Positions 353 to 39,987 of a stretch of 64,000 bases of DNA are shown here, in pieces; the first letter of the stretch is position 1; each line of letters opens with the position of its first letter. Made by a program: the position numbers and the translations under genes. The stretch comes from Amoebidium appalachense (Eukaryota; Protista; Ichthyosporea): positions 8,249,355 to 8,313,354 of the forward strand of contig CAVNZM010000006.1 of the NCBI GenBank assembly GCA_963693365.1, given 5' to 3'. The notes under the pieces are model-generated. The model saw only the letters and a program-made list of their open reading frames with translations. It ran no database searches and was not told where the DNA came from.

Positions 353-600
353 AAGGGGTCGAAGGCGCAGACACAGGCGCAGCCGCGCAAAACATATCAG
401 ATTTGACGGCCCCGAATCAGCTTGAAACCATGCGGCAACGGCATGCAGCACCGGCAACCTAATAAAACAAATGCGTACACAGTGTAAATGCGTGCTGTTT
501 GGCTCCTTCTGTTTCTGTTGTTTGTCGGCGCTGCCGTCTTTATTTGGACTAGCCCGTGAAGGGCTCGGTTAAGAATTGATGTTTTCTTCATGCTCGTGGG

Positions 601-813
601 CTACACAGCCTTTGTCTTTGCCAGCAACTGCTTGCGGGTCTTGCGCACCAATTTTAGGAAGTCCTTGCCCTCGTGTTCGGCCTGGTCGAGGCGGGCAAGT
701 GCCGTCTTCATGGTCGACGGCTGCGAGGGGATGGCGGGGGCTTTGGCGCGTCTCGTGCGAGACTTCCTCTTGGACACGCCGATCTGCTCGAGGATTAGGT
801 CGTCCAGTGTCAT
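601..813 (-). CDS. Small basic hypothetical protein (70 aa, MTLDDLILEQ...)
   Basis: ATG at 813 inside ORF 601..930; K/R-rich (KRKSRTRRAK); co-oriented with neighbours. Confidence 0.55.
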   Translation of the reverse strand: MTLDDLILEQIGVSKRKSRTRRAKAPAIPSQPSTMKTALARLDQAEHEGKDFLKLVRKTRKQLLAKTKAV

Positions 814-868
814 TCTAACAGCACTGCCGAATAAACGGGGAGCTGCCAACCGTTGGGCGCAAAACCAC

Positions 869-1144
869 CTACAGCCTCTCGAGTGCGGGAACCGCGTACT
901 GGAGAAGTGCGTATATGATGCCCACGGCAATCAAGCTCCGCGTGATGTTCTGCTCGCCACGTCCCTGCCAGACCAGGAAGAACAGGAACACGTACTGCAG
1001 CCAGGGCCACTTGCGCCCCAGGCGGTGGAGCGAGTCGTTGGGTGGGTAGGCCATGTAGGCGGTCAACCCGGTGATGGTAGCCTGGAAAAGGGGGTTTCTC
1101 ATGTATGCCCTCATCCCATAATCGACACCCGTGGCCAAAGACAT
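869..1144 (-). CDS. Small multi-pass membrane protein (91 aa)
   Basis: Three hydrophobic segments (LFQATITGLTAYMAY, WLQYVFLFFLVW, SLIAVGIIYALLQY); TATAATG start context. Confidence 0.65.
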   Translation of the reverse strand: MSLATGVDYGMRAYMRNPLFQATITGLTAYMAYPPNDSLHRLGRKWPWLQYVFLFFLVWQGRGEQNITRSLIAVGIIYALLQYAVPALERL

Positions 1145-1200
1145 TATACCCTACCACCAAATTATATCGAACGGCTGCTGTCTGGAGGCATTTTGGCGGT

Positions 1201-1716
1201 TTAGAGAATCTCGAGCCCGGCGTCGTCCAAGCGCATGCGTGCCACCCCCGTTGCCGAGGTGAACAGCAGTCCCGAGTCCCCGGCTGCCTCGATGCGCCAG
1301 CCGTTTGCAAAAACAAAGTGGCCGTCGAAATTGCCTACAAGCCTGTCCATCCACGGGCTCTGTATTCGTCCGTCACGTGTGACCGTGAGCACATCCTGGC
1401 CGTTACCTGTTCGTAGGCGCCCGCGCACGTGCGGATCGACATAGACCATAAGGTCCTTGATCTTGGGGAAATATGGCAGCGGCTCGTCCAGCACCAGCAG
1501 CCCCCGTGCGAGCTCAACCGACTGGATCGTGCGTACGTGGTGAAGCACAGCCAGGGCCTGTCCTGGGTAGAAGAAGTACTCGGGGCTCGTGACGTTCCTG
1601 AACCTGAGGTTGCCCTTGTCCCAGCTGAACCCCCCCTGCACGCCTATGGAAAGCGGTTGGTCGGAGTCCCAGGCCATGCACCTGACCGTCGCGGTGTCCA
1701 GCTCGCATCCCGACAT
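1201..1716 (-). CDS. Beta-rich hypothetical protein, possibly virion fibre-like
   Basis: ATG at 1716 (MSGCELDT); beta-strand pattern such as RTIQSVELARGLLVLDEPL and NGWRIEAAGDSGLLF. The fibre role is inference. Confidence 0.55.
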   Translation of the reverse strand: MSGCELDTATVRCMAWDSDQPLSIGVQGGFSWDKGNLRFRNVTSPEYFFYPGQALAVLHHVRTIQSVELARGLLVLDEPLPYFPKIKDLMVYVDPHVRGRLRTGNGQDVLTVTRDGRIQSPWMDRLVGNFDGHFVFANGWRIEAAGDSGLLFTSATGVARMRLDDAGLEIL

Positions 1717-1732
1717 TATTGCGTGGCTCTGC

Positions 1733-2233
1733 ATGGATAACCGCCATGATAACAGTCATTCGCGCGTCTTTGCGGCCGAGCTCGACGGGCAGGTGGGTGC
1801 GAGAGATGTGGCTCGACGGCTGCTGGAGAACGGGGCGAGGGCGGTATGCTCGGCAGGCAGTGAGGGTGGTGTTCGAGTGTGCGTGCTGTACCGGAGCTTT
1901 CGGGGCGCGGGCGAGGTGATGGGTGTGCTTGCGGCTTTCAAGTGCAGGAGGTGTGTGGTGCGACGTCCAACAAACGCGTTCAAGGACTGGCTGGAGGTCG
2001 TCTCGCTAAACCGTGACCCGTGCATGTACGTACAGAAGGGGGGAAAGATGCAGCTGAGCGAGGAGCTGTTTCCAAAAGAGCTTGAGTCCATGGGCTGCTA
2101 CTGCGAGTACGTGGAGGCATGCCACTTCTACTCGCCCGTGCTCAAAAGACTGGATATGCCACTGCCCCGTCTGGGGGATATTTATTGCGAAGAGGAGACG
2201 GAGGCCAGCGAGGATGACGCGGCCGGTGACTGA
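1733..2233 (+). CDS. Hypothetical protein (166 aa) with acidic tail; weak resemblance to a Rep/HUH-fold domain
   Basis: ATG at 1733, divergent from the 1716 gene; contains CMYVQKGG (YxxK-like) but no HUH histidines. Confidence 0.55.
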   Translation: MDNRHDNSHSRVFAAELDGQVGARDVARRLLENGARAVCSAGSEGGVRVCVLYRSFRGAGEVMGVLAAFKCRRCVVRRPTNAFKDWLEVVSLNRDPCMYVQKGGKMQLSEELFPKELESMGCYCEYVEACHFYSPVLKRLDMPLPRLGDIYCEEETEASEDDAAGD

Positions 2234-3048
2234 GGGGCCGCCCCGGGGGGGCTGGGAGCTGCGGGCGGGCCGGGGGGGCTGTGGGGCTCCTCGTCGGGGT
2301 CGCAGTCGGGGGTGAGGTAGCGGTCCAGGGTGTCCTCGAGCGCTCGCTGCACGGCCGCCCAGGCGCCCTCGTCGTAGTGCAGGGTCTCGGTGTCGAGCTC
2401 ACCGCACAGGCACTGGATGAACTCGCAACTCTTAAGCCCTGTGATGGCAAAGTAGCCCATGACCTGGATGCGGTCGTAGACGGGGATGTGGAACTTGTTG
2501 ACGCGGTTCTTGACCTCGACGATGCGCCCGAGCTCGTCGCACACGCCGTCCAGGCGGCCCCCGATCTGGTAGCGCACTCCGCCACGCGTGGTGAAGGGCT
2601 TGGAGACACGGAACACGGTGTTGCGCTCGGTCAGCTTCTTGCCGGTCAGCCGCTCGTACTCGTCCATGACGGGGTCCTCGCCCGTGAGCCCGCGGGTCTT
2701 GAAGATGACGCCCCTGGCCAGCTCCCTGTCGGCGGGGTCGTCGATGGACGAGAGCGCATCGTCGATCAGCATCTTGAGCTCGTCGGCGGACTCGGCCTTG
2801 GCCATCTTCACGAGCCCGTTCTCCAGCACGTCGGCATGGCGCTTGCGGCAGAGGAACTCGGCCTTGCGGGCCGCAGCCTCGCCGAGACGGGCATTGCGCA
2901 GGCGCGAGCGAAGGTGGGGGAAGGACGAGTAGACGATCTGCTCGTTGTGGCAGAGCAGGGCGTTCACGGCATCGGCGACTTCACGATACTTGTGGCGACC
3001 AGCGAGGGCAGCGAGCTCAGTGCAGTAGATGGTCAGAATTCTGGACAT
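2182..3048 (-). CDS. YqaJ-like (lambda-exonuclease family) viral recombinase/exonuclease
   Basis: RGLTGE, IGGRLDG, IVEVKNR and YDRIQVMGY motifs of the YqaJ PD-(D/E)XK family; ATG at 3048 downstream of a TATA box at ~3102-3111. Confidence 0.85.
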   Translation of the reverse strand: MSRILTIYCTELAALAGRHKYREVADAVNALLCHNEQIVYSSFPHLRSRLRNARLGEAAARKAEFLCRKRHADVLENGLVKMAKAESADELKMLIDDALSSIDDPADRELARGVIFKTRGLTGEDPVMDEYERLTGKKLTERNTVFRVSKPFTTRGGVRYQIGGRLDGVCDELGRIVEVKNRVNKFHIPVYDRIQVMGYFAITGLKSCEFIQCLCGELDTETLHYDEGAWAAVQRALEDTLDRYLTPDCDPDEEPHSPPGPPAAPSPPGAAPQSPAASSSLASVSSSQ

Positions 3049-3237
3049 GCCTACAGGTAGCTGAGAAAATAAAAAGTGAGGGGGTTTGGTCACCGCGCGG
3101 CCTTTTATACCCTCGAACCCAGTCGCCAAAACAAGAAAAAATCGACCGCGCTTCATCGCGGCAGTCGCATCACCTCTGACTCCCGCGAAGGTATAAAAGC
3201 CGGCACACACCCATACAACCATCACACCTGCAGCAAC

Positions 3238-4938
3238 ATGTCTCTCTCTCAAACCTTTCCTTCTCTTGCCCGCGAGTGGCACCCAAGCAAGAATGCCCCG
3301 CTGTCGGCGTCGTCCGTGGGGGCAAAGTCGAACAAGAAGGTGTGGTGGCTCTGCGGCACACCGGGCTGCAACACCGAGTGGGAGGCCTACGTGTTTGCGC
3401 GGATCAAGCAGGAGCCAGGCTGCGTCGCGTGCCGCAAGAAGGCCGACCCCAAGAAGTACTTTACCAAGAAGCTCGATGCCGACAAGACCTTTGCGGCGCT
3501 CTTCCCCGACATTTCCGCAGAATGGCACTTTGAGAAGAACACCCCCATCACCCCCTCCGACATCGGCAAGGCAAGCAACGTCTTCTGGTGGAAATGTTCC
3601 AGTCCCGGTTGTGATGTCGAGTGGCAGGCGAGCCCCTCGAACCGCACGAAGAACGGACCTGGCTGCCCGGCATGCAAGCGCAAGGGGATAAGCATGCGCG
3701 TGAAGACGGATGAGACACTCCAGGCAAAGTTCCCGGCCATCGCCGCCGAGTGGCATCCCACGAAGAATGGTGAGGCCACGCCGGACAGCGTGCACCACGG
3801 CAAGAAGATGAAGGTCTGGTGGGTGTGCACGAACGGTCACGAGTGGGAGAACTGGATTCACAACCGCACACGACTCGGCAACGCCTGCCCCAACTGTGCC
3901 AGCAACAAGAGGGCTCGCGCGCTCGGGCCTGACGAAGTCGAGACGCCGGCCACCAAACGCCCGCGCAAAGAACTGCCCAAGAACGACGAGGAGTACGCCG
4001 AGAAGCGACACGCCAACCTTGAACGACGAAGCGCCCATGGCATCGAGATAGGTGCAGTAGGAAAGAAGTGGGTGATGGGCATGTTCAGAGAGGCTGGTCT
4101 GACCATTATGCCGACAAGGGAAAGTTGTGGCGCAGATTTCCTTTGGGTGACGGAGCCTGGTGACGAACCCCGTGGCTTTGCGGTGACGGTTAAAACCAGC
4201 ACCCGACGGGACAAAACAGATTATGCGTTCATGCGATGCAACAAATACTCAGGTGGACTGGTCGCGTGTGTTGGGGACAATGGCGAGACACGGCGACTGT
4301 GGATGTTCGCGGGAAACGAATCAGTCATGAATTCTTCGGGCCAAATTAGGATTGGGCAAGGGGGGCGGACTAGATTTTCGGACCGTCAGGTCGCATCAAC
4401 TGACGAATTGCTGAATGTACTTGAGGGCCTGAAGAAGAACCTCCAAATACAATCATACATTCAAACAAACACCCCAAAGGGAATAAAGCAGGTGCGGGAG
4501 ATGGAGACGCAGGCTGCCATCGAGGAAGTACTCCAGACCAAATTTGTGTATCCAGAGGCACATGAACACAACGCGCGATACGACATGTACTGGAAGGGCA
4601 AAAGGATCCAGGCCAAGACGGCGACGGACATGGGTTCGTATTGGCAGTTTAAACTCGCGACATATGCCGGTGGACCCATACGTGAAACATATTATGCCAT
4701 AGGCGACTTTGACTTTGTTATGGTGTATCTTCCCGGTTCTTCACCGAGTGTTTTATTCGTCCCTGCCTCAGAGCTTCACCGACGAGGGCTGATCGCTGAT
4801 GCCCACGGTCCTCGAGCGGCACCCTGTGTGACATTGAAGAAGCATGGTGGGGGGAAGCACGGCTGGCTCCTGGATTTCAGATATCCTATAGTCCAGGGGT
4901 TGGAGGAAAGCTTCTTATCAATCCTGGAGCGTTTCTAG
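3238..4938 (+). CDS. Three DUF4379-type zinc-ribbon repeats plus two PD-(D/E)XK nuclease domains (homing-endonuclease-like)
   Basis: 3x EWH..KN...WWxC...W...R...CxxC; C-terminal ADF...VKTS and YDM...IQAKT motifs; GGTATAAAAG at 3190. Confidence 0.8.
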   Translation: MSLSQTFPSLAREWHPSKNAPLSASSVGAKSNKKVWWLCGTPGCNTEWEAYVFARIKQEPGCVACRKKADPKKYFTKKLDADKTFAALFPDISAEWHFEKNTPITPSDIGKASNVFWWKCSSPGCDVEWQASPSNRTKNGPGCPACKRKGISMRVKTDETLQAKFPAIAAEWHPTKNGEATPDSVHHGKKMKVWWVCTNGHEWENWIHNRTRLGNACPNCASNKRARALGPDEVETPATKRPRKELPKNDEEYAEKRHANLERRSAHGIEIGAVGKKWVMGMFREAGLTIMPTRESCGADFLWVTEPGDEPRGFAVTVKTSTRRDKTDYAFMRCNKYSGGLVACVGDNGETRRLWMFAGNESVMNSSGQIRIGQGGRTRFSDRQVASTDELLNVLEGLKKNLQIQSYIQTNTPKGIKQVREMETQAAIEEVLQTKFVYPEAHEHNARYDMYWKGKRIQAKTATDMGSYWQFKLATYAGGPIRETYYAIGDFDFVMVYLPGSSPSVLFVPASELHRRGLIADAHGPRAAPCVTLKKHGGGKHGWLLDFRYPIVQGLEESFLSILERF

Positions 4939-5006
4939 TGTTGCAGGAGTAGTGACCACTGTGGCAGGTCCACGTCGTTTATGCATGGTTTTTAGTCGTA
5001 TGTATT

Positions 5007-6389
5007 TCAATAAAGGCGGAAATTTGTATAATCTATACAACGAACACAACATACTTGCAATAATCCACGGTATAGAATTAAGATGGGTGACCAGGAGAAG
5101 CGCAGACTGAGCATCCCACCACTGATGCTCACTAGGTTGTGACCTCTGGCATATACCCAGAAGTCCACGGTGCCGCTGAGGGACTCGTGAAGCTCCAGGT
5201 TCAGGTCAATCGTGTCGATGCGGGAGAAGTTCGTGCTGCCTGTGGGCTGGATGGAGTCTTCGGGCTGGAGGGCATAGGGGATCATGAACATCTTGAGCGT
5301 AGGGGCACGGGTGTGGTACTTCTGGACCAGCACCTTGTGCGAGAACAGCCCGCTGTAGTTGTACTGCATGCCGGTGTTGTTGTACTTGACGTCGATCTTC
5401 TGGATGGGTAGGTACAGCGGGTTGTTGGGGCTCTTGCCAGGCGAGGCAAAGTTGAAGAAGTCGTTCTTGCCGGGCTCGTTGTTGCGTGTGCGGGGCTGGC
5501 ACACGATGAGCAGCTCCTTGACAGGGAAGCCGAAGTTGAGCTGCTGTGTGAGGGTAGCCTTCTCGTTGGGCCTGCTGTTGACGTTGGAGCTGAACATCTT
5601 CTCCTGCCACAGGTCCACGAGGTAGTCGTGGCGCTGGGCCTGGGCCCACATGGCACGTTCCTGCTCGTCCACGAAGATGTACTCGACGATGATGCTGCTG
5701 TCGGATATCTTGCCACCATGAGCGTCGTTGGTGGAGCTGGAGGGCTTCTGGTCGCCGACGTCGTTGATGAGGTCACGCAGGGGCTTGGTGTCGATGTCGA
5801 TGCGCACGGTGTGGAACTGCAGGGCGACAATGGGCAGGGCAGCACCATACCTCCTGTTGAACCAGAACTGCAGGGGAAAGAAGTACTCCATCTCGTGGTT
5901 GGCCCACTCGCGCAGCTGGCTCACATGATCGGCCTTGCCAATGGCGATGCCCAGCCCCTTGCCAGGGGGTGTCTCGATGTCCTCGAGCAGAGCGAGAAGG
6001 CGGCCCACGTGCTGGTCGATGCGGTATGTCCCCACGTTCAGCTCGATGCGGTTGAAGAGGGCAAAGGGCAGCATGTTGACAAAGTGGGCGTCGTAGGGAA
6101 GGGGGCCAATCGAGGCGTTGGAGACGGCGTTGGGTGGCCCACGCTTAAGAGCGCCTACCTTGAAGTGGATCCAAAGGTCCTTGATGAGGTCTCCGGAACG
6201 ACTAATCTCGCAGTTGCAGCCGGTGGCGCCGTAGTCCAGGGCGGTCTGGAAGTTGACCCTAAAGAACTCAATGGAGAAGTTGCTGATCTGCGCATACTTG
6301 CTGCGGAACAGGGTCTTGGTGGGTTTGAAGGTCAGAACGGAATCCTGAACGCCCTTGGACACCAGCTGCACAATCGCCGAGCTAGACAT
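5007..6389 (-). CDS. mcp: NCLDV-type double jelly-roll major capsid protein
   Basis: N-terminus VQLVSKGVQDSVLT..P..T.F; ISRSGDLI; PLQFWF...ALPIVALQFH; FPVKEL; YALQPE...QPTGSTNFSRID; C-terminal VYARGHNLVSISGG. These are hallmark NCLDV MCP motifs. Confidence 0.96.
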   Translation of the reverse strand: MSSSAIVQLVSKGVQDSVLTFKPTKTLFRSKYAQISNFSIEFFRVNFQTALDYGATGCNCEISRSGDLIKDLWIHFKVGALKRGPPNAVSNASIGPLPYDAHFVNMLPFALFNRIELNVGTYRIDQHVGRLLALLEDIETPPGKGLGIAIGKADHVSQLREWANHEMEYFFPLQFWFNRRYGAALPIVALQFHTVRIDIDTKPLRDLINDVGDQKPSSSTNDAHGGKISDSSIIVEYIFVDEQERAMWAQAQRHDYLVDLWQEKMFSSNVNSRPNEKATLTQQLNFGFPVKELLIVCQPRTRNNEPGKNDFFNFASPGKSPNNPLYLPIQKIDVKYNNTGMQYNYSGLFSHKVLVQKYHTRAPTLKMFMIPYALQPEDSIQPTGSTNFSRIDTIDLNLELHESLSGTVDFWVYARGHNLVSISGGMLSLRFSWSPILILYRGLLQVCCVRCIDYTNFRLY

Positions 6390-6477
6390 GTTTAATAGAC
6401 GCGCACATAATATTGCGCTCTCGTGGGTCTGGATGCATATCGTACCATCAAACAGACTTTTTGCGGCCAACAGCAGG

Positions 6478-7250
6478 ATGCCCTACGCAACGTTCGAGGC
6501 CCTGTACAACGACTTCGGCGGCCCGGCCCGCCGGCTGCAGATACTCGCCACGGACCGCTACGCGAGGGATTTCGACATCCCTGAGCCCGTGGTGCGGGAC
6601 TGCGCGCTGCTGCTTGCGCACGCGATCGACGAGTTCACGGAACAGCTGGCCCACGAGGCGCCGCTGCCGCTGTCTGCCCTCGGGATCGTCGACATGGCGC
6701 ACTACATCTGGGGACTGCTCGAGACGGCCGAAGTCAAGAAGTTCCCGTTCAGCAAGGCGCTGCGCGTGGCCGAGGACGTGTACCAGCGCACGAGGCTGGC
6801 ATGCATGTCGTCCACGGCGGCGGACTTCAACCGTACGGTCGTGGACGCATGCGGCACGCCCGCCACGGTGGTGACGGACATCAGCAGGTACTCGCGCTTC
6901 TACGAGCTGCCGCTGGCGGACGTGGCCACAATCAACAGGTGGCTTGTGACAACCAAGCGACAGCTGGCAAGCGACCCGATGAAGGTACTGGATGTCCCCA
7001 AGCCCATCCAGCGCATGCGCCCGCGCACCCGCTGCGTGAAGCGGGAGGAGGCGCAGAGCCGGCGCATGGAGCTGCACGAGGACCTGTTCCAGCGCTGGCG
7101 CAACACCGTCTACAAGCCGGACAACATGGTGGCCATGCCGACCCACGAGGTGGACAAGAATACCCTGCTGGCCGTGCACCACCGGCGGCTCACCGGGCAG
7201 CACGTCGAAAAGTTTGTGTCGGGGACGGCGGAGGACATCCAGGGAAAACC
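6478..7250 (+). CDS. Hypothetical protein divergent from MCP; 3' end uncertain (frame runs on to 7980)
   Basis: ATG at 6478 (MPYATFEAL); strong GC3 bias to ~7250, after which the frame is antisense to the next gene. Confidence 0.6.
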
Positions 7251-8157
7251 GGCGCACGGGGTACACCTTGACCGGGCGCAGATCCCCCTGCACCATCTTC
7301 AACGTCTCCTCGGGCTCGCAGCCCTCCTGCTCGCGCCACGTGCGTGCGAGCATCCGGCCGACCGTGCTGCTGGACCTGTCGGTGATGCCTCGGTCGACGA
7401 GGAACTTCCCGACGGTCACGTACCCGCCGATCGCAGACTCCTCGATGGCCGCACGCTCGCCGGCGGGCACGAGCACGTTGGCCACGGCGTCGTTGAGCAG
7501 CATGATGCGCATGCGCGGGTCCCTGTCGAGGCCGAACTCCTCGAGGAGGCTGCGGTAGCTCTTGATGTTCTCCACACGCATGCGCCCGTTCTCCTCCTTC
7601 ATGCGCTCGTTCTCAATGTGCATGCGCTCGACCTCGGCCTCCTCCCGCTTCACGCGCAGGCGACGCTCCTCCTCCAGCTCTTCGCGGCGTCGCTTGCGCT
7701 CGGGGGTCTCGTCGGTGCCGTTGCGGAAAAACGCACGCTCCTCGGATGTGCTGCCGTCATAGCGGGCCTCGATCTCGGGGATGAGCGAGAGGTCGCCGGA
7801 GAGCAGGCGGGCTACGTAGGTGGCACACGTCCTGCGGAACACATGGGCGCGCTTGCCGGGGAGCAGGAAGATGATCTCGAGGAGGACCCGGAAGGGGGCG
7901 ATTGGGGTGGGTTTTCCAACCCCATTGATCTGGGCGTCCTCAGCCTCGCTGAGGATGTCAACAACACTATGGTCCTTTGATTTCTTAATCTGTGACCATG
8001 CCTCGTACATCGCCGCCTTTCCAATCACCATTGAAATCACATCTAGGACACTTGCCATGTTCTTGTCTCTGTCAATGCGCATAGTGCAACCTTTGAACTG
8101 GGGGAACTCCTTCCAAAGAAGCGACATGTCGCCTTTTTTGTTCTGCTCGCCAGCCAT
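7245..8157 (-). CDS. Bro-N/KilA-like DNA-binding family protein, copy 1 (coiled-coil C-terminus; stop apparently missing)
   Basis: ASVLDVI...INGVGKPTPIAPF...LLPGKRAHVFR...LLSGDLSLIPEIE; aligns with the 20702-21642 paralog up to VKVYPV. Confidence 0.75.
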
Positions 8158-8235
8158 GCTGTGTCAGAATGACTGGTTTTGCACGGGTGGTGCTCTTTTA
8201 TACCTTGTGATCTTGCAGGTGGCTAGGGTAAAACC

Positions 8236-8931
8236 CTACAAACCCCTGCGCCTTGCTCCCAAGGGTTCCTGCCCACCCATCGCAATCGTCACAATGTCAT
8301 TTACCGCGCTGTACACACAGAACCCCTCTGCGTGTGGGTTGTAGCGCAGCCACCGGCACCCCAGCGCTTTTGTGATGTAGTTCTGGCGCACCTCCTCATA
8401 CACTGGGTCACGGTCGTCATGGTTGTGCTCGTCGCACTCAACCGCCAGATTCAGAGCCGGAAAATAGAGATCGATACGATATGGCTTTACGTAGAACTGT
8501 GGGGAGCTTTCAAAGTACGCCGTGCACCGCCGGATAACAGAGATGGTTTCGCTTTCAATGTAAGTTTGCATTATCACACCTACCGGCAATTCAAACTTAG
8601 AAGCCCAGTAGGCTTTTTTGTCGGCTGATAGCCTGCAGCCAGGGAGGATGGCAGCAACTATCTGGCGCATGCCATCCCACGAAGCAACAGGGGTCAGCTT
8701 GCCCTTTCCGTTGATCCGGAGAAGGGAAACTCCGATGTTCGGGTCTTTAGACTTCTTGAGATCAAACCATGCAGACCTTGCTGCATTGGCAGTGCCGAGT
8801 ACCAGAGATACTACATCCAGCACACTTGCCGTCTTGGTAACCTCGTCGATGCGAATGGTAGCAACCTTGAACCAGGGGAACTCCTTCCAGAGCATCGACA
8901 TGTCGCCTTTTTTGTTCTGCTCGCCAGCCAT
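8236..8931 (-). CDS. Bro-N/KilA-like N-domain fused to a DUF559/Vsr-like endonuclease (copy 2)
   Basis: Same N-terminus MAGEQNKKGDMS.LWKEFP; C-terminal QF.V..YRIDLYF...LAVECDEHNH...RQ..I...LGCRWLRYNP. Confidence 0.82.
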   Translation of the reverse strand: MAGEQNKKGDMSMLWKEFPWFKVATIRIDEVTKTASVLDVVSLVLGTANAARSAWFDLKKSKDPNIGVSLLRINGKGKLTPVASWDGMRQIVAAILPGCRLSADKKAYWASKFELPVGVIMQTYIESETISVIRRCTAYFESSPQFYVKPYRIDLYFPALNLAVECDEHNHDDRDPVYEEVRQNYITKALGCRWLRYNPHAEGFCVYSAVNDIVTIAMGGQEPLGARRRGL

Positions 8932-9123
8932 GCTGTGTCCGACTGGCCTCCTCTGCCGGGCGCTGCTCTTTTATACCTTCAGACCAGGAGAACGGGAGCC
9001 CCGACGCTCGGCACGGTTGGTGTCGGCCTCCCAGGCTGCCAGCCGCTTGTCGTAGAGTAAACTGCATCAACACGGAAAGTGCACCGGACGTGCACATGTA
9101 GCAATCTTTTTGGGGTCCCGGGT

Positions 9124-23393: not shown

Positions 23394-23555
23394 GCTGTGT
23401 CAGATAGACTGACCCCAGGTGGCCGTGTGTGCTCCTTTTATACCTGCGCGTGGCACCCTCAGTCGTGCTGAGGATAGGTTGGTGAGCATACTTGACTTGA
23501 AAGAACTTGTGGGATCGCCAAATCTCAAAAGCTTTTGATTTCTTCTTCGTACTGC

Positions 23556-24665: not shown

Positions 24666-24703
24666 GGGTGTGTGTGCGTTTGTGTGTTTCTTCTCGGACA
24701 ACT

Positions 24704-25372: not shown

Positions 25373-25439
25373 AATAGGGTACCAAAAAAAACACGACTCA
25401 TTTTTATATTATAAGCCAGTCCGGGTGTTATGAATCCGA

Positions 25440-25810
25440 TATAACACCAATCACAACAAAACCACCGACACACCACCAACCTACCCAAGTTACCACCAAC
25501 CTACCAACAGTAATCGCGATTTCGATTAGTAGAATTAGACCCAAACGTCGATTTCACTTATAAATAGTAGGTTGGGTAGGTTCAGTGGGTTGTTTTGGGG
25601 TTGAGTCGAGCTGGGGCAAAAACAAACGAACACCAACGATGTGTGTTTGGGGGGACCCCTCCGAGAACCTACCCAACCTACCGAAGTTACCAAAACCCCC
25701 AACAACCAATGAAATACGCCCGTTAAACCAAGAAACCAATCGGATGGCTTTGTTAAAACGTTTGCGCAAAACCCAAGCTACCACCAAGTGGCCGAAGTTA
25801 CTGAAAGGAA
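25440..25810. promoter_or_regulatory. Non-coding iteron/inverted-repeat region, candidate replication origin
   Basis: AACCTACC units at ~25478 and ~25498; 17-bp perfect inverted repeat GTAGGTTGGGTAGGTTC (25567-25583) / GAACCTACCCAACCTAC (25665-25681); AAGTTAC x3. Confidence 0.45.
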
Positions 25811-25818
25811 GCTGGCGA

Positions 25819-27876
25819 TCACTTATGCGAAAGTATCTTCGAGAACGAAACTCGATAAGCACGCGATGTCTTTGACACTGCCCCCACTGCCACCGATTCG
25901 CGTAGCGGTACATGCAGCGCCTCTCCAAACACCTGTGTCAGCGTCGATCCCAACCTCTTGATGCCCACCACCCGCCGACTGTCGAGCATGTTGGCGTCCG
26001 CCCACATTCGCATCCGTTCAGCCATGCCAGTGGCTGTTACCCAGCACCCATCCGCGATTCCGAAGTCTTGTGTTCCGTCAGCTCCTTGGGCGATGTCCCT
26101 CAGAAATTGTATTTCTAGCGGCAGACTCTTCTCCATGAGCTGTTGCTTGAGCTTAGTATGGGGGGGCGGCGGCATTGTCTTAGGGACATCGGGAAGGTCC
26201 AGGAAGAAGTGGAACAGAGCCTCCAGCACCTCCGGTTGCCGGTGAAATCTGACGAACTCGTCGAAGTACCGGAGCTGACCCACCCGAGAGCCGTTTGCCT
26301 CGAGACATATGAATCTCCGATCGGATAGCTCCACACGAACGGGCCAATCTTCGTTTGACAGAAAGACGTAGCGCTCGAAGTTTTTGGTGTAGATGCCATC
26401 CACACCCTTCTTCTCCAAAAGGCTGTCTTCTTGTGTGATCAGACTTTTGATAAGGTTGTTGGCCTCGTGGCACCCACCAAAGACACACTCGTCGATAACA
26501 GCTAGTAGTTTGTGGTTGAGGTGGGAGTTGAACTTGCTGGATATGTGTTCCTTGTTCTTCACGTAAGCGTAGTATTCCGAGCCTACCAGCGCCTTGAGTA
26601 CGTCGAAGAACACATTTTTCCCGGTTCCCTGGACTGACTTGACGAGTACCGCCGTCCCAGACTTGGTGTCGGGGTGCTGGAAAATCTGGGCAACCCACTT
26701 GAGAAGGTATTCAAATACCTCGGCGTTTCCATCGGCAAGCACCTCGAATGCGTGGCGTATGAACATCTCGATCCCGCCATATTCCCGTACACGGTACTTC
26801 TCGAGGAGCTCATCCGGCATGACCACAACCTTCTGGCCAGGATGGTAGGGGGTCATCGGGCATTCTGGGCCCATGTAACGGAATCCCTCAGTGTACTTGA
26901 TGGGGAAGCCGCGAAAGAAGTTATATGTGAACAGGGCTCCTTGGCGGTACTTGGGGTTTATCTCTCCTGTCTTGGGATTGGGCGACGCGGGGTCGAAGAC
27001 TGCTTGCCCATAACGAGGAACGTGGCGTCCCATAAGGAAATCAATGCCGGTGTACGTCCGCTTGATTTCACCACCCTCACCCTCCATCCACTCAACCACG
27101 AAACCCTGCATGGTGCATTTCATGTCCTTCTCGGTCAACGTCTTGAGTGTGTACACGCCCTTGTCATGGCACCACACCTTCAAGAGGTAGAGGGATGTGC
27201 CGTTGATTTTTCCCACCCACTTCTGCAGGTACTCGACGAGCTCAGCTTCCTTCCAGGTGGTTGGTAGCAGGTCCGGCATGAACTCGTATCCACCCGGAGG
27301 GTCGGTCGACTCTTGCTCAAGAACGCGGATCACCTCCTCGATGAGAGTCTGCCGCTTCCGGTCCTTGTTTGCAACCACGGCGGGGGCGGCTGCTGTACTA
27401 GGTGCTGTGCCGAATGTGGTCGTATGGGGCCCCTGGGTCCAACGCGTCGCGGTCGTCCAGTCGAGAATCGGGTTCATTACTACCCTGTTGGCCAAAGGAA
27501 ATTTCTCCTTGGCCCATGACTTGAGCGCAGCTCTGTTAGGCCCGGGAGCTGGGTGGCGGGTGTTGCACTCGTAGTGTGCGGTCTTGTGGCGCTTGGACTG
27601 ACGGGTGGTTATTTCGGCATAAACCAGTCCAAACTGTCGCTTGAGGGAATTGTGGAGGTCGTTGTGATCGAAGGGCTCATTGTCCACCGTAACTTCCCGG
27701 GACCCCTGTGGTGCAAAGACTGCGAGGTACCAGTCAGGACAGGCACTGCGGCGCGAGAGCCCTTGGTTTGCCTGCTTGGGTTGATCTGCACCCTCGCAGC
27801 AAACCTCGTATTCGGTCTTCTCCGTATCCTTGCCGTCGCACCGGGCAGTGTTCATGTTTGAGCGAATGACATCCAT
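25819..27876 (-). CDS. D5-like superfamily 3 helicase (DUF5906-type) with no recognisable primase domain
   Basis: Walker A VQGTGKN, Walker B VIDE, motif C FLSNE, arginine finger DRRF; upstream FDP / YNFFRGF and HAFEVLA...YLLKWVA motifs. Confidence 0.9.
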   Translation of the reverse strand: MDVIRSNMNTARCDGKDTEKTEYEVCCEGADQPKQANQGLSRRSACPDWYLAVFAPQGSREVTVDNEPFDHNDLHNSLKRQFGLVYAEITTRQSKRHKTAHYECNTRHPAPGPNRAALKSWAKEKFPLANRVVMNPILDWTTATRWTQGPHTTTFGTAPSTAAAPAVVANKDRKRQTLIEEVIRVLEQESTDPPGGYEFMPDLLPTTWKEAELVEYLQKWVGKINGTSLYLLKVWCHDKGVYTLKTLTEKDMKCTMQGFVVEWMEGEGGEIKRTYTGIDFLMGRHVPRYGQAVFDPASPNPKTGEINPKYRQGALFTYNFFRGFPIKYTEGFRYMGPECPMTPYHPGQKVVVMPDELLEKYRVREYGGIEMFIRHAFEVLADGNAEVFEYLLKWVAQIFQHPDTKSGTAVLVKSVQGTGKNVFFDVLKALVGSEYYAYVKNKEHISSKFNSHLNHKLLAVIDECVFGGCHEANNLIKSLITQEDSLLEKKGVDGIYTKNFERYVFLSNEDWPVRVELSDRRFICLEANGSRVGQLRYFDEFVRFHRQPEVLEALFHFFLDLPDVPKTMPPPPHTKLKQQLMEKSLPLEIQFLRDIAQGADGTQDFGIADGCWVTATGMAERMRMWADANMLDSRRVVGIKRLGSTLTQVFGEALHVPLRESVAVGAVSKTSRAYRVSFSKILSHK

Positions 27877-27931
27877 TGTGGTAGTGAAGGGGATAGATAA
27901 TATTTGACGGTCTGAGGTCTGGCAAGCGCTT

Positions 27932-28387
27932 TTATACCTTCGGGCTGGGCACAAGACTGGGGTGTTCAGTCTCGACGTGCCTGTTCAGGGTTGTAGACCA
28001 GGCAAATGCAGCCTGGCACTGGTCGAAGGGGCATGTAAAACGCCCGCTTGCGCGCCGGGGCCGTCTCGGCAGCTGACACCCTTCATGAGCTGTTCGTCGG
28101 TGAACCCACAAACCCGCAGGATAGACGTAAGTGGCTGGACAGTCTGGGCATTGATAGGGTCGGCTGCCAGAGTGTGTGCGCTGGTGCAGTTTCATGTGGT
28201 CGCTGCGGGCAAAGCTTGCAAAGCAGCCGGGTTGTGGACAGGCATATGCGCCGGTGCTATTATTCTTGTGGGTATTTTCGTGTCTTTTTAGATTTGCCTT
28301 GAATGTGAACATTGCTGAACACAGTGTGCAAGCGTGGCGCTTCGGGTTAGGGGGTGTCTCTATGGTTGGCGTGTATTGGAGGTCCAT
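27932..28387 (-). CDS. Intronless four-finger C2H2 zinc-finger protein
   Basis: Four CxxC/CxxxxC...HxxxH fingers, linker HSGSRPY, helix RSDHMKLH; TATATAA at ~28425-28431. Confidence 0.88.
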   Translation of the reverse strand: MDLQYTPTIETPPNPKRHACTLCSAMFTFKANLKRHENTHKNNSTGAYACPQPGCFASFARSDHMKLHQRTHSGSRPYQCPDCPATYVYPAGLWVHRRTAHEGCQLPRRPRRASGRFTCPFDQCQAAFAWSTTLNRHVETEHPSLVPSPKV

Positions 28388-28477
28388 TACTGCTAAGTGG
28401 CAAGAAAAGAAACATGATAACGCTTTATATAACCCCTGGTCTTCTTCGTCGGCCACTGATTTTTTCTGTGACCTACA

Positions 28478-28650
28478 ATGATGGCCACCTACGACGAGGC
28501 GTTTGTCAGCGACAAATTGGCACGGATTGAAGGTGGGAAACGCGAAGTGGTGACCCCCGCGGGCCGCATCGACCTGCTCACAGACACGGACATCATCGAG
28601 GTCAAGCGCGCACCACAGTGGAAGGCCGCTATGGGACAGGTGCTGGCGGC
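28478..28650 (+). pseudogene. Third PD-(D/E)XK nuclease copy, truncated after GQVLA
   Basis: First 57 aa are highly similar to 24704-25372; unrelated G-rich sequence follows abruptly. Confidence 0.8.
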
Positions 28651-28946
28651 CGAGAGGGGGAGGCGAAAGGGGGTGGGGGACGAGAGGACGCGCTGCGAAG
28701 GGAGCGGGGGCGCGAGGAGAGGAGGGGGGGGCGCCGGGCGCCGGACGAGGACGAGCACGCAGGTCACGAGGTCCAGGCGCGCGGGAAGAGGCGCGGAACG
28801 GCCGCACAGCCACACTACCCCGACCGCCAACCGAGTATCCACTGTTCGACATGCGCCGGCAGACGGTACAGGATTGCGCAAACCATCACGTCGCCACATC
28901 ACGCTACAACGAAGAGGACACGTGCAGTGATTTGGGGGGACGAGCG

Positions 28947-29676
28947 GGCAAAGACGTAAAAGACGAAAAATAAATAGAGAAGGCACGGGCAAAAAGTCAA
29001 AGCAGCGCAGAGTTGGCCAATAAACGGTCAAAGCTAGCGCGAAGTAGTGAATATTCAACGAAGCTAGCGCAGAGTTGGCCAATAAACGGTCAAAGCAGCG
29101 CAGAGTTGGCCAATATCCGGTCAACCAAACACGAACCCTCGGTCAATATCCGGTCAACCCGAACTCGTGTTTGGCGAAAATCTAGTGAACCCAAAACGAA
29201 CATCGCGCGAACCCCTGCCAATATCCGGTCAACCCGAACTCGTGTTTGGCGCAAATCTAGTGAACCCAAAACGAACATCGCGCGAACCCCTGCCAATATC
29301 CGGTCAACCAAACACGAACCCTCAGTCAATATCGTTCGATCCACGGAGCATCCATTTCAATATTGGTCGAATCACGGAGACCACCTTTGAATAATGCTTG
29401 AATCGTATTCACCCGCTATTCAATCTGATTGGTCGAAACATTAAATCTGATTGTACGAAACCGGTTCAATCTGATTGGTCGAAACATTAAATCTGATTGC
29501 ACGAAACCGGTTCAATCTGATTGGTCGAAACCGTTTATTGACAGGAGTCCCAATTGTTGGGGATGACCGGCTGGCTACCACCCCAGCACGTGCTTCTCCA
29601 GGAAGCGCACGGGGTACACCTTGACCGGGTGCAGGCAAAGACGTAAAAGATGAAAAATAAATAGAAAAGCCACGGG
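28947..29676. repeat. CCAAT-rich nested repeat block bounded by ~43-bp direct repeats
   Basis: GGCAAAGACGTAAAAGA.GAAAAATAAATAGA at ~28947 and ~29634; internal GCGCAGAGTTGGCCAATA x3, ~75-bp duplication, AATCTGATTG x5. Confidence 0.75.
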
Positions 29677-29717
29677 AAGAGGGTGGGAAGCCCCCCTCCC
29701 CAAAAAACAAAACAAAG

Positions 29718-30500
29718 AGCGCACGGTCATAGCGCTCATGACACATCTCTCCAAGAACACATGTGCAAGCGCACGGTGATTGCGCTCATGACCCTACACT
29801 CAAACAACACAGGTGCAAGCACACGCATTGCCCCTCCCCCCCCACCCCCCCCCCCCTCCCCCCACCCCCCCCCCCCCACCTCCCCCCCCACACACACACA
29901 CACAAAGCGCCCGGTGATAGCGCTCATGACACATCTCTCCAAGAACACATGTGCAAGCGCACGGTGATTGCGCTCATGACCCTACACTCAAACAACACAG
30001 GTGCAAGCACACGCATTGCCCCTCCCCCCCCCCCCCCCCCTCCCCCCCCCCCCCCCCCCCCACCTCCCCCCCACACACACACACACAAAGCGCCCGGTGA
30101 TAGCGCTCATGACACATCTCTCCAAGAACACATGTGCAAGCGCACGGTGATTGCGCTCATTAACCTACTCTCAAACAACACAGGTGCAAGCACACGCATT
30201 GCCCCTCCCCCCCACCCCCCCCATCCCCCTCCCCCCCCCCCCCCACCATCCCCCCCCCCCCCCCACAATCCCCCTCCCCCCACACACACACAAAGGCATT
30301 CGGGAACACACATGCACACTTTGCATCCCCCCCCCCCCCCCCCACAATCCCCCTCCCCCCACACACACACAAAGGCATTCGGGAACACACATGCACACTT
30401 TGCATCCCCCCTCCCCCCCCCCCCCCCCCCACAATCCCCCTCCCCCCACACACACACAAAGGCATTCGGGAACACACATGCACACTTTGCATCCCCCCAC
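29718..30500 (+). repeat. Array of ~50-bp units (GCACGGTGATAGCGCTCATGAC...) with poly-C spacers, then 3 copies of a second unit
   Basis: Repeats are directly visible; the unit is the reverse complement of the 32752-33051 array. Confidence 0.85.
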
Positions 30501-30554
30501 CCCACCCCCTTCGTGAGAATGCACTGAGTTTCACTTAATAAAATAAGTTGAATT

Positions 30555-32405
30555 TTATTGATCGTAAAAGAGCACGAAGTCGCCTGGCCTGCTGGTAATA
30601 TGGTGATACCGATCACAGTCAGGCCAAAGTTCATCCCATGTGTTGGTTGCTGCTTCATAACACAGCCAGTGGTCGTATGGATCACCAACTACTTGCACAT
30701 GGTGATTCCTGATGGCATCCTCGAGGGCTGTCTGACACGGCAGTTGAGGGTACCAATCCGGACCATCCAAAACCTGGGCGATAGGAACAGCACTCCACAG
30801 GGCATCCGCGCTGGGAGACGTGTCAGGCTGGCCCGTGGTCTTGTTAATACCGATATAGCTGCCGCGCTGTTGTTCCAAATGGTCGGAGGGGGTTTGTACC
30901 CAATAATTCTCGATCTCTGCTTGCCAGGGGCAGACGGTGTCGGCATTGTTGAGCATGATTTGGTCAAATCCACTCGGGGGGTAGATGACGGCCGCTTGCC
31001 GGGTTTCGGTGTCGTAAGCATACAACCCGTCAACAACGAATGGCAAATCTCTACCTTGCCCCTCCACTTGGGCTTTTTGGAACTCTTCGCGCTCAACATA
31101 TTTCCTGATTGTGTCAATTAAGTCTCCCCAATCGAAGGGAAGCACAATGACGTGTCGTTTGTTCATGACGTCCACAAGCATCTGCCACGACACGCCCACT
31201 TGCAGACGCCGCATGTATGTGAAAATTTCGACGGTTTCGATGTCGGTATCGATCTGGCCCAGGGGAACAAACTCGCCTTCTTCCTGCCCTTCCTGAATCT
31301 CGTAAGCAAACCACCCCGTGCACCGCCCGAATATGTTTTTGCGCTCGGCAGGCCCACCCTCGCTGTAATCCGCCTGGACCCTGCTTACTAAATTCGAAAG
31401 CTTTTTGTCCCATTCCAGCTTGTGTCTAATGATGTTTGCGTAGTCGTACAGGTGGGCTTGGGTACGGGGTGCAGTTGTAACTGGCGGGTTTGAGGCAGCT
31501 TGTGCCAAAATATTGGCCTTTTGGGTGGCCATATCTAGTATTATATTCGCATGGACATCGTCGTAGCCGTCGTCGTCGTGGTCCCTCCGGTGGGCATAAT
31601 GGTCCATCAATCGCAGCAGCAAACACGTGTTAAACGACTCTAACGTATACGCAGAGCTGTCTAACTTGACAACTCCTGCAGACCCTCGCAACCACGCAGT
31701 GCACGGCGGGTAATGCCGCAGTTTGCCGTCCCCCGTGTACCCCTCACTGGGGTGTGTCTCTACGATCCTTCTAATAGCATCCTCAGGAAGTAAACCCCAC
31801 CAGTTCCAGAACCTACTATCCTGAAAATCACTGTTATTCTCTATCGCGTATTGGACATCCGCCAAAGTGGAGGTTGCAAAAAACATATCGGCAAAGCTCT
31901 CGCTCGTTTTTTGGTCCAGTTCGGACATTTTTGCCGCAATCTCTGCTGCTGTGGCCTGCATCACCGTCCTAGTTGCAAGGCAACAGCGCCCTTCAGGGTT
32001 GTACACGGCCAGCTTGTCATAGCTTCGGAGGTACACCGCTGTGCATGCACGGAAACCTGCTTTCAACTCTTCCTGCAGTTGCAATAGACTCAACGAGGTG
32101 TCTACCTCAAACACAACAAAAGGGTGCAACGTTTCCACTAGAGTGACATCTTCGGGGGTTGAAACCGTGGCAAGGCCGTTGGTGTTTGCAAGAGAAAACA
32201 CTGCAACATCTTCCCCTACAGGGCCTAACAACAGCGGTGTCTTCGATGGAACGATCCGAACACGCACTGGCATTGAGGGTGCAAGTCCCATTGCTGACAG
32301 CGAAATAATAATTCTGCCTATACCCTGCATGCCAAATCCTGTTGTGTTTTCGTGCAGCTGAGGTCGGTGTATTTGAAACGATTTGGATATAATAACATCA
32401 GTCAT
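30555..32405 (-). CDS. Orphan hypothetical protein (616 aa)
   Basis: Long intronless ORF with lower GC3 than the capsid genes; CCAAT boxes just upstream; stop overlaps AATAAA. Confidence 0.75.
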   Translation of the reverse strand: MTDVIISKSFQIHRPQLHENTTGFGMQGIGRIIISLSAMGLAPSMPVRVRIVPSKTPLLLGPVGEDVAVFSLANTNGLATVSTPEDVTLVETLHPFVVFEVDTSLSLLQLQEELKAGFRACTAVYLRSYDKLAVYNPEGRCCLATRTVMQATAAEIAAKMSELDQKTSESFADMFFATSTLADVQYAIENNSDFQDSRFWNWWGLLPEDAIRRIVETHPSEGYTGDGKLRHYPPCTAWLRGSAGVVKLDSSAYTLESFNTCLLLRLMDHYAHRRDHDDDGYDDVHANIILDMATQKANILAQAASNPPVTTAPRTQAHLYDYANIIRHKLEWDKKLSNLVSRVQADYSEGGPAERKNIFGRCTGWFAYEIQEGQEEGEFVPLGQIDTDIETVEIFTYMRRLQVGVSWQMLVDVMNKRHVIVLPFDWGDLIDTIRKYVEREEFQKAQVEGQGRDLPFVVDGLYAYDTETRQAAVIYPPSGFDQIMLNNADTVCPWQAEIENYWVQTPSDHLEQQRGSYIGINKTTGQPDTSPSADALWSAVPIAQVLDGPDWYPQLPCQTALEDAIRNHHVQVVGDPYDHWLCYEAATNTWDELWPDCDRYHHITSRPGDFVLFYDQ

Positions 32406-32751
32406 CGCGCTGATTGGCTAAACGCGGATGACACATCTTTTAACGGATGATTGGTTGGATAAATCTAGTTACCATCGGCTAGCCGCGCTGATTGGCCAAA
32501 TCCAATTGGTGGCATAACCCGTGCGCAAGCCCGAAAATTCGGATTTGTTTCTTGGTATTTTTTGAAGTCCGGAATATTTTTGCCTGGGGTGTATGGTATT
32601 TTTCATCCCCAGTTAAAGGGGGTAAAAGGGGGTTCCTATTTTAGCTTACCACGAAATTTGCAGGGGTTTACCATAAACTGAAAATATGATGGTATTTTTG
32701 AAACGTTTAGGGTATTTTTTACCGTAAAAACGGGGTTATGGTCGGGCCTGC

Positions 32752-33051
32752 CCGTGCGCTTGCACCTGTGTTGCTTGAGAGTAGGGTCATGAGCGCTATC
32801 ACCGTGCGCTTGCACCTGTGTTGCTTGAGAGTAGGGTCATGAGCGCTATCACCGTGCGCTTGCACCTGTGTTGCTTGAGAGTAGGGTCATGAGCGCTATC
32901 ACCGTGCGCTTGCACCTGTGTTGCTTGAGAGTAGGGTCATGAGCGCTATCACCGTGCGCTTGCACCTGTGTTGCTTGAGAGTAGGGTCATGAGCGCTATC
33001 ACCGTGCGCTTGCACCTGTGTTGTTGGCGAGTAGGGTCATGATCGCTATCA
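32752..33051 (-). repeat. Six tandem 50-bp repeats
   Basis: CCGTGCGCTTGCACCTGTGTTGCTTGAGAGTAGGGTCATGAGCGCTATCA x5 plus one variant. Confidence 0.95.
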
Positions 33052-33154
33052 CCATACCCTTGCTCATGAGCGCCCCCCCCCCCCCCCCCCCCCAAACCCT
33101 CCTCCCATCTGCCCGCACAACCCCAACCCCACATTATATCGTGCACCGGGTAAC

Positions 33155-33548
33155 ATGGACGCTGGCGCACCCCTTCCCCCACCCAGCCCATTCGCACCCC
33201 CCTCCCCCGATCCGCACAAGCCCGCGCAGCACCCCCGGGCCCTCCCCCATCCTACTGGCCATCCTGGCCGGCCTGATCCTCTACGTGCTCTGGGACACGT
33301 TCAGCCCACGTGTGCGGCGGCGCCTGGCAGTGCTCAAGTGCCAGCGCGCGTGCCCAATGTGTGCCAGCTGCGGCAGCTGCGTTCCCCGCCGCAAGTGTGC
33401 GCACTGCCCCCGCTGCCACGTGTGCGGTGCCAGCCCCACTCGGTGCGCACAGTGCCCCGCATGCACGCGCTGCCCGCCCGAGCAGAAGTGCCCGGCGTGC
33501 CCCACGTGTGCGCATGCGCCTGCGGTGGTGATCAAGGAGCGCACTTGA
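33155..33548 (+). CDS. Membrane-anchored CPxC-repeat cysteine-rich protein (5' frame uncertain)
   Basis: TM ILLAILAGLILYVLW then about 17 Cys in CxxC repeats; the ATG at 33155 needs a frameshift in a C-run. Confidence 0.6.
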
Positions 33549-33584
33549 AGGGTTGGGTGAGCAGAGATTTTTGTGGCATAGAGT

Positions 33585-33845
33585 ATGGCGTACCGATGGG
33601 AGTACAAGCTGAAGGAGGAGCCCGGCAAGGCACCCGTGGTGCAGGCAACTATTGTGCCGACCGAGGCCACCACCCGGCGGACGCAGATGGAGCAACGAGC
33701 ATACGCACAAGAGCTTGCGGAAAAGGGCTATATAGATCTGCCCGATGAGTTGGCGGAGAAGTGTGGATTCAAGAAGTGGGTGCCGAAGAATCAACGACAG
33801 ACAGCAATTGTACTGCAGAAGATGATGGAGCCTGAGGATGCATAG
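33585..33845 (+). CDS. Small hypothetical protein (86 aa)
   Basis: Compact ORF with T-tract/ATG context like the other viral genes. Confidence 0.55.
   Translation: MAYRWEYKLKEEPGKAPVVQATIVPTEATTRRTQMEQRAYAQELAEKGYIDLPDELAEKCGFKKWVPKNQRQTAIVLQKMMEPEDA

Positions 33846-34700: not shown

Positions 34701-39987
<5,287 letters not shown>

Follow-up and report, generated by a model that had tools for sequence, protein, structure and literature searches.

The main text of Sarre et al. (2024, PMC11244446) describes CGC/GCG methylation in the ichthyosporean Amoebidium and 132 giant-virus insertions in its genome, in regions of up to 200 kb, which are placed beside Mamonoviridae. Multi-exon JmjC genes are reported there in 39% of the 132 insertions, none of which has the full core set. 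A32, VLTF3, D5, the MCP (major capsid protein) and PCNA are named for the insertions, while DNA polymerase B (PolB) and RNA polymerase (RNAP) are not named in the text; the trees, as its text without figures presents them, were built on MCP and VLTF3, with PolB used only for adintoviruses. The 'Ariadnavirales'/'Skiavirales' (the SmDNAV group) have been placed as sister to Mamonoviridae and Manesviridae, near the position of the Amoebidium elements (main text of bioRxiv 10.64898/2026.08.29.747986), and mriyavirus genomes measure 35-45 kb (Yutin et al. 2024, PMC11253617, main text). Here we analyzed a window of 64,000 nucleotides from Amoebidium appalachense (contig CAVNZM010000006.1, positions 8,249,355 to 8,313,354; coordinates below count from its first letter), which holds the damaged remains of a virus with a capsid of the nucleocytoplasmic large DNA virus (NCLDV) type.

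The left 34 kb of the window consists of intronless open reading frames (ORFs), tightly packed on both strands, and the right remainder is repeat-rich eukaryotic DNA with a gypsy retrotransposon at its end. We found that the replication protein encoded in the viral part probably joins an inactive domain of the HUH-Rep fold to a superfamily 3 (SF3) helicase. On the best explanation of the locus as a whole, to which we give a probability of about 0.55, the parent virus likely used host polymerases in the nucleus for its replication, together with this primase-less helicase and its predicted HUH domain. The initial annotation of this DNA had offered an undescribed kind of virus as one possibility; that claim does not hold for the lack of polymerases, as the main texts of bioRxiv 10.64898/2026.08.29.747986 and 10.64898/2026.07.28.741200 already report NCLDVs of about 200 kb that have neither PolB nor RNAP. 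The insertion itself is very likely one of a published set, and polymerase-less giant viruses are already known; it is the helicase that matters most.

Replication protein and promoters

The SF3 helicase recognized in the initial annotation was confirmed at 25819-27876(-) (DUF5906, E 3e-20). Four relatives were found, and two more as members of clusters, and a structure was modeled from 7 sequences (mean pLDDT 57). Residues 46-160 of this model (window 27397-27741) reached a pLDDT of about 80 and follow a beta-alpha-beta-beta-alpha-beta-(turn)-beta order. In a fold search (VIA), this N-terminal domain matched the Rep of wheat dwarf virus, a geminivirus (Z 10.0, root-mean-square deviation 3.0, 101 residues aligned), Vientovirus Rep (Z 9.9) and tomato yellow leaf curl virus (Z 9.7), as well as the SV40 T-antigen origin-binding domain (Z 8.6) and papillomavirus E1 (Z 8.3). 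The remainder of the model matched the NrS-1 helicase (Z 12.1). No archaeo-eukaryotic primase (AEP) domain was among the best 50 rows of a wide fold search. The Atlas placed homologue P0174 by features with the Rep_OBD, Viral_Rep and Gemini_AL1 clusters (0.93, 189-191 shared features, the families being present on 10-38% of members) and by structure with CRESS Rep clusters (TM 0.64-0.69), in both cases under the naming bar.

The motifs were read with the HUH definitions in the main text of PMC11253617. All five N-terminal domains lacked both the primase DxD and Yx2-3K; HIH was kept in two of them and HxE in three. In the stretch from the fourth strand to the beginning of the fifth, a position taken from strand order, all five have an invariant Trp and no Tyr. 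Thus, where Nucleocytoviricota would show a D5-like AEP primase joined to SF3, the SF3 part is present here and is preceded by a domain without DxD whose best match is to HUH Reps. As modeled, the domain very probably has the HUH-Rep fold, and there is a good chance that it is dead as a nuclease. It is likely to be neither a primase nor a nickase, and the predicted structure makes an initiator similar to E1 and T antigen the likely role of the whole protein.

Several points weigh against this assignment. The placement of Trp at the position of the catalytic Tyr comes from strand order, not from residue-level superposition, and the whole model was built from only 7 sequences and has a mean pLDDT of 57. 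ACT domains reached Z 8.8, over a shorter 83 residues. The truncated homologue P0019 (residues 1-110, without the first strand) leaned to RepB/AEP primases (0.92), and a profile of the N-terminal domain found no sequence-level match in PDB or Pfam, to a Rep or otherwise.

The promoters also fit a nucleus-dependent parent. The exact TATA box GGTATAAAAG occurs in 8 copies, all within 3102-27938, where 0.04 were expected (0 of 100 shuffles). Seven of the 8 copies lie 44-61 nt before an ATG that opens at least 60 codons, and the eighth precedes a frameshifted paralogue. Replication and DNA-binding genes are the only ones behind the exact box. With the looser pattern TATA[AT]A[AT], 10 of 35 starts had a box at a distance of 36-61 nt on the upstream side. 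The genes bearing it are nuclease, helicase, zinc-finger and paralogue-family genes, and none is a capsid, penton-candidate or membrane gene. On the other side, 3 of the 10 TATA-bearing starts were chosen after the motif had been seen, and host-type early TATA promoters are compatible with a viral late RNAP, as in baculoviruses. The starts at 813, 1144, 11317, 14407, 15053, 19168 and 33585, which have no TATA box, are often TA-rich before the ATG (TAATG, TAGATG), and these letters are perhaps a late-promoter motif. The early motif of Medusavirus is palindromic, unlike this TATA box (PMC8557863, main text).

Gene content and state of the copy

Pfam was searched with 44 ORFs from the viral region and PHROGs with 33; the coding share over 353-29640 is 85% for a rough gene set. 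The call of an NCLDV-type MCP at 5007-6389(-) was borne out in Pfam, where it passed the cut-offs of Capsid_N (E 1e-26) and of Capsid_NCLDV (E 1e-22), and in PDB by capsid chains of the chlorovirus PBCV-1 and others (best E 9e-46). As in Nucleocytoviricota, this is a double jelly-roll MCP (PF04451 and PF16903). The stop codon seen in its relatives is missing, and the frame extends 34 residues further. The A22 resolvase also stood: the RuvC/A22-like protein at 17033-17605(+), again a nucleocytoviral trait, scored 24.1 bits for Ydc2 against a cut-off of 23, matched Pox_A22 below cut-off (E 0.002) and matched a protein from an NCLDV capsid locus (E 5e-9). For the proposed YqaJ exonuclease (2182-3048, -) there were weak matches (Pfam E 0.023; PHROG 434 E 0.0015) and nothing stronger. 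The proposed penton protein (15053-16411, +) was left unconfirmed, with no Pfam or PDB match; it has one homologue (43% identity), and both contain a PxGNY segment, which we take to be a penton motif.

PolB, RNAP, A32 and VLTF had been reported as missing, and indeed none was found in the window with Pfam or PHROGs. A six-frame motif scan of the window gave no PolB, RNAP or VLTF3 motif; its Walker A pattern is insensitive and missed that of the helicase itself. The A32 packaging ATPase and VLTF3, both expected of Nucleocytoviricota, are in neither case present in this damaged copy. The features are as follows.

1-352 (+): long terminal repeat (LTR)-like repeat end; left bound of the viral DNA, not a viral terminus; ends in CA
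601-1734 (-): three small orphan genes (70, 91 and 177 aa, the 91-aa one with a hydrophobic segment); no family at cut-off
2182-3048 (-): YqaJ-like exonuclease/recombinase, weak in Pfam and PHROGs, with a TATA box 61 nt ahead of it
3238-4938 (+): three treble-clef zinc fingers (DUF4379, E 1e-43) and a weak PD-(D/E)XK nuclease (PDDEXK_5, E 0.05); TATA box 46 nt upstream
5007-6389 (-): major capsid protein, double jelly roll (Pfam, PDB)
6478-7252 (+): orphan gene, truncated at the 7252/7253 junction; sister contigs carry 76-255+ other letters behind 7253
7253-8931 (-): two paralogous-family genes, both preceded by GGTATAAAAG; the 3' end of the first is truncated
11317-12822 (+): orphan paralogue A, 44% identical to 17651-19168; no family match
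15053-16411 (+): penton-like candidate, unconfirmed; one 43% homologue
17033-17605 (+): RuvC/A22-like Holliday junction resolvase (Ydc2, Pox_A22)
17651-19168 (-): orphan paralogue B of 11317-12822, by alignment (44% identity)
20702-23445 (-): additional genes of the paralogous family, in part with frameshifts, by sequence similarity
21754-22479 (-): weak T5orf172/GIY-YIG-like gene (Pfam)
25819-27876 (-): replication protein, predicted HUH-Rep-fold domain and NrS-1/D5-type SF3 helicase; TATA box 60 nt upstream
27932-28387 (-): C2H2 zinc-finger protein (zf-C2H2, E 5e-18); TATA-like box 44 nt upstream
28996-29533: non-coding tandem arrays with units of 31, 75 and 46 nt; putative origin or terminus
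29584-29635 (-): 3' end of a paralogue-family gene; sister contigs continue into sequence at 7283
29718-33068: unit between inverted arrays of a 50-nt repeat, with one 616-aa orphan (30555-32405, -)
33039-33845 (+): Cys-rich membrane-type ORF and an 86-aa ORF, the last intronless ORFs
35231-36069 (-): split JmjC gene in two frames (Pfam JmjC), to the right of the viral region

Some of these genes deserve further comment. The paralogous family at 7253-8931 is presumably Bro-N/KilA-N-like, with no Pfam match to that domain. The gene at 3238-4938 is convergent with the capsid gene, and sister copies vary downstream of the capsid, so the zinc-finger/nuclease gene may be mobile. The orphan paralogues A and B (about 500 aa) share conserved HAS, EFFN/ECFN and ACASW segments, and their His/Cys pattern is suggestive of a papain-like protease, for which the databases gave no support; a profile of the pair found nothing in PDB, and the single-sequence fold of 11317-12822 was unusable (pLDDT 35). 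Three small paralogous proteins (23879-24292, 24704-25372 and 28478-28930) have a GRIDILT..QVIEVK segment, which we take to be PD-(D/E)XK-like, and the second of them also bears a copy of the helicase C-terminal domain (43%). CCAAT-rich DNA lies upstream of the 616-aa orphan, and the unit at 29718-33068 is possibly a small mobile element or a viral end structure; compared with a sister contig (X1), 121 of its 1,697 letters differ, against 3 of 1,385 for the helicase.

The state of the copy was assessed by aligning sister contigs from four public runs to 1-19900 and 19000-34030, in which read and contig depth is not usable as copy number. Twenty listed records from 3 named studies, and 9 more without a study, contain the stretch, one of which may be the source of the window; no RNA record was among those listed. 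A separate repeat of high depth occupies positions 1-352 and ends in CA, and other contigs continue with a TGGCG-type start, presumably like a primer site; these bases are likely an LTR end that was inserted secondarily into viral DNA. Sister viral contigs extend left of 353 into different DNA (the X1 record has 3,240 nt, 452 of them aligned, and the X17 record 3,655 nt, 2,118 aligned). They depart from the window at 5097, 7252/7253, 15023, 17660, 19751, 19885, 20670, 28648 and 29635, with loose ends of 255 letters or more at 353, 7252, 7253, 15023, 17660, 19751, 19885 and 28648. In all four runs the contigs pass the left end or leave the window sequence at internal points. From 29635 they join sequence that is present in the window at 7283, and the gene order of the window is therefore likely not that of the parent. 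Frames are broken near 13630, 23373, 23857 and 28466, and single runs contain several alleles at once, in agreement with a multi-copy family. The reading of the region as one compact virus of about 28-33 kb is not supported, in view of the LTR-like left end, the internally departing sister contigs and the broken frames. Its stated alternative, a fragment of a giant-virus insertion, agrees with the sister DNA beyond the ends and junctions and with the disabled genes. We are confident that the region is a piece of something larger, and it is a damaged and likely rearranged giant-virus copy, of a kind that was likely integrated many times in the protist genome.

The flanks connect the locus with the published set. 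The split JmjC gene lies 1.4 kb to the right of the last viral ORF (Pfam matches in two frames, E 3e-12 in one and 0.0055 in the other, 109 segments being scanned), as at Amoebidium insertions. Of the 277 CpG in the gypsy element, only 23 are in the CGC/GCG context, where 45% would be expected; the viral part has 1,139 of 2,366, as expected. This depletion in the flanking DNA may be an indirect, sequence-derived sign of a host with CGC/GCG methylation. Together, the split JmjC gene and the depleted CGC/GCG context make an Amoebidium-like host very likely and suggest a link to the endogenous giant viruses published for Amoebidium, to which the insertion very likely belongs. The gypsy element itself (57075-63630) encodes gag-like, protease, reverse transcriptase, RNase H and integrase parts and shows extreme loss of CpG in this context, and LTR-like pieces lie near 55570-55630, 56271 and 63845-63940, as if its 5' LTR had been interrupted. 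Beyond the JmjC gene, on its right side, lie orphan ORFs (37177-39987, 42577-43581 and 45549-46127) that carry tandem-repeat insertions and have no Pfam family at cut-off; they may belong to the same putative methylated island.

Relatives and the parent virus

The nearest named relative is in an assembly of Daphnia sinensis, with 78% identity in the capsid (KAI9549643.1) and 51% in the helicase (KAI9549581.1). These two proteins are likely on one contig of 183,011 nt, 62 accessions apart, where the window has about 20 genes between them; another MCP relative (P0004) is on a 122,362-nt ENA contig. Amoebidium grows on Daphnia, which would explain a viral relative in a Daphnia assembly. In an MCP tree (154 sequences, 411 columns, FastTree, midpoint root; 8 of 162 sequences longer than 620 aa were dropped), the window fell inside a clade of 11 tips on a long branch (0.77) with support 1.0. 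The MCP phylogeny thus gave a firm clade and no family placement, the tips outside it that were looked up being without virus names. P0023 and P0160, on contigs of 2.2 kb (ENA) and 6.2 kb (JGI), are divergent capsids and the only distant members of this clade. No sister locus was found in IMG/VR by the MCP, by the MCP profile (11 loci, best 29%), by the helicase profile (3 distant loci) or by the penton candidate, and no close one among the best 80 of 177 loci in JGI metagenomes (best 27%). In the 94 IMG/VR and JGI loci, the window genes matched were only the MCP, the resolvase, the helicase and, weakly, YqaJ. A literature search found no paper linking Daphnia sinensis with giant viruses.

Papillomavirus E1 and SV40 large T bind the origin and unwind it with their SF3 part, and the host primase and polymerases do the copying. 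The parent of the window may have worked in a comparable way. Host RNA polymerase II would transcribe the TATA-bearing early genes, the inactive Rep-like domain would bind the origin without nicking it (the arrays at 28996-29533 are a candidate), and the SF3 ring would open the DNA there. Host primase and polymerases would then copy the opened DNA as they do for E1 and large T, and YqaJ and RuvC would process recombination intermediates and concatemers. Such intermediates could have entered host chromosomes and later gained deletions, frameshifts and the LTR insertion. The primase-less HUH-fold helicase and the TATA boxes support a nucleus-dependent parent indirectly. That the parent had no RNAP is probable, and the odds that it also had no PolB are slightly better than even, so that "nucleus-dependent, without its own polymerases" is a plausible description. 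More tentatively, and at less than even odds, the element may represent a deep lineage of NCLDVs in ichthyosporean hosts. This lineage would have given up its polymerases for DNA as well as RNA, and its replication protein would have been put together anew from an SF3 helicase and a CRESS-type Rep domain that had been disarmed.

What speaks against this explanation is mainly the state of the material. The absence of PolB and RNAP was seen only in this damaged copy, which is also without the essential A32 ATPase, and a copy without the packaging ATPase cannot show that its parent had no polymerases. The only named relative sits in a Daphnia assembly, where genes need not follow the order of the accessions and part of the 183-kb contig may belong to the host. 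Moreover, the placement next to Mamonoviridae points to relatives that keep PolB (main text of bioRxiv 10.64898/2026.08.29.747986). The main rival is a medusavirus-like parent with its own PolB and without RNAP, whose PolB gene would lie outside this copy or have been deleted from it and whose HUH-type helicase would load for the viral polymerase. A32 and VLTF3, obligatory in the family, are likewise missing from this copy, sister contigs carry extra DNA at many junctions, and both Mamonoviridae and Manesviridae encode PolB according to the same preprint text. However, PolB is never named for the 132 Amoebidium insertions in the text of PMC11244446 (as distinct from its Fig. 2D and S4A), and the helicase has lost its primase; we regard such a parent as unlikely. 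A small mriyavirus-like virus of 35-50 kb that is nearly whole in the window appears very unlikely. It would agree with the 85% coding share, the missing polymerases, the HUH domain as a mriyavirus hallmark (PMC11253617, main text) and the average of about 21 genes that our own arithmetic gives for the published insertions, yet not with the many junctions leading to unseen extra DNA, with the 62-accession gap and the 122-183 kb contigs of its relatives, or with an MCP that passes both NCLDV Pfam cut-offs and an HUH domain that is fused and without motif III.

Two further scenarios concern the integrity of the window. If the helicase block (about 20.7-29.6 kb) were a separate plasmid- or transpoviron-like hitch-hiker, the initiator would be uninformative on the capsid-bearing virus. 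None of the listed pieces bridges 20564-20670, a C2H2 zinc finger is present in the block, and single-contig depth is lower there than over 9-19 kb (X1, 11-19 vs 31-42, depth not being copy number). The MCP and helicase relatives are nevertheless on a contig of the same size in the Daphnia assembly, the TATA motif and the paralogue family are common to both blocks, and sister contigs join 29635 to 7283, so that we give this scenario very little weight. The junctions might also be assembly chimeras of similar copies or of co-sequenced free virus. Near-identical variants do exist (1,445 contigs aligned from X4, 828 at 99% or more, 440 at 95-99% and 177 at 90-95%), and 352/353, 7252/7253 and the right flank were unbridged by the pieces listed, which were 32 out of about 6,000 and 32 out of about 38,500. 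An inherited copy, however, typically collects such damage as frameshifts, a lost stop and an LTR-like insertion, and contigs of both X4 and X1 cross the junction at 5097, which makes chimeras highly improbable.

Comparison with described viruses and initiators

The insertion shares with the published Amoebidium endogenous giant viruses intron-poor NCLDV genes with an MCP and a D5-like helicase, secondary transposon insertion, a split JmjC gene alongside, an incomplete core set, polymorphic copies and the CGC/GCG signature in the flanks (PMC11244446, main text). That paper labels the helicase a D5 primase, and polymerase loss, an HUH domain and promoters are absent from its text.

'Ariadnavirales'/'Skiavirales' resemble the element in their NCLDV capsid, in keeping RuvC/A22 and YqaJ, in lacking RNAP and, for the most part, PolB (there from whole genomes; in the element both are missing from the window) and in the proposed dependence on the nucleus. 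According to the preprint texts, they are without a D5-like SF3 helicase, have a UL9-like AEP-SF2 protein instead and mostly infect thraustochytrids; the window has the SF3 helicase and no SF2 helicase. Neither Amoebidium nor Daphnia occurs in the texts of 10.64898/2026.08.29.747986 and 10.64898/2026.07.28.741200 apart from their supplements, nor HUH in the former. Mriyaviricetes likewise have no PolB or RNAP (for the element, as seen in the window), a helicase whose primase was lost or replaced, an HUH domain and RuvC (Yutin et al. 2024, PMC11253617, main text). In contrast, theirs is a separate, predicted active HUH nuclease with Yx2-3K, and here the HUH-fold domain forms part of the helicase protein and has no motif III (Yx2-3K in 0 of 5, HxH in 2 of 5). 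Because the element fails a defining trait of each, we file it under neither the SmDNAV group nor the mriyaviruses. Literature searches for an HUH-SF3 fusion in giant viruses listed a mriyavirus paper, a polinton-like virus preprint and two papers on small DNA viruses, and among these matches, as listed, there was no such fusion in a virus with an NCLDV capsid. The initiator-like helicase is the new element here.

If the more tentative reading, of a deep lineage without either polymerase, is true, a giant virus would have replicated in the manner of SV40 and papillomaviruses and would have become dependent on the nucleus independently of the mriyaviruses and of the SmDNAV group, as a third such case; if the parent also lacked PolB, its initiator would be a giant-virus counterpart of T antigen that arose by convergence. 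Like E1 and large T antigen (1r9w, 1ksy, 3qk2 and 4gdf), the predicted model has an HUH-fold domain N-terminal to an SF3 helicase, and the catalytic tyrosine, at its position as judged from strand order, appears to be lost. The domain in the window differs in that its structure resembles CRESS Reps (Z 10.0) slightly more than E1 and T antigen (Z 8.3-8.6), and its helicase is of the NrS-1/D5 type. Therefore, the likeness of this replication protein to E1 and large T is likely convergent.

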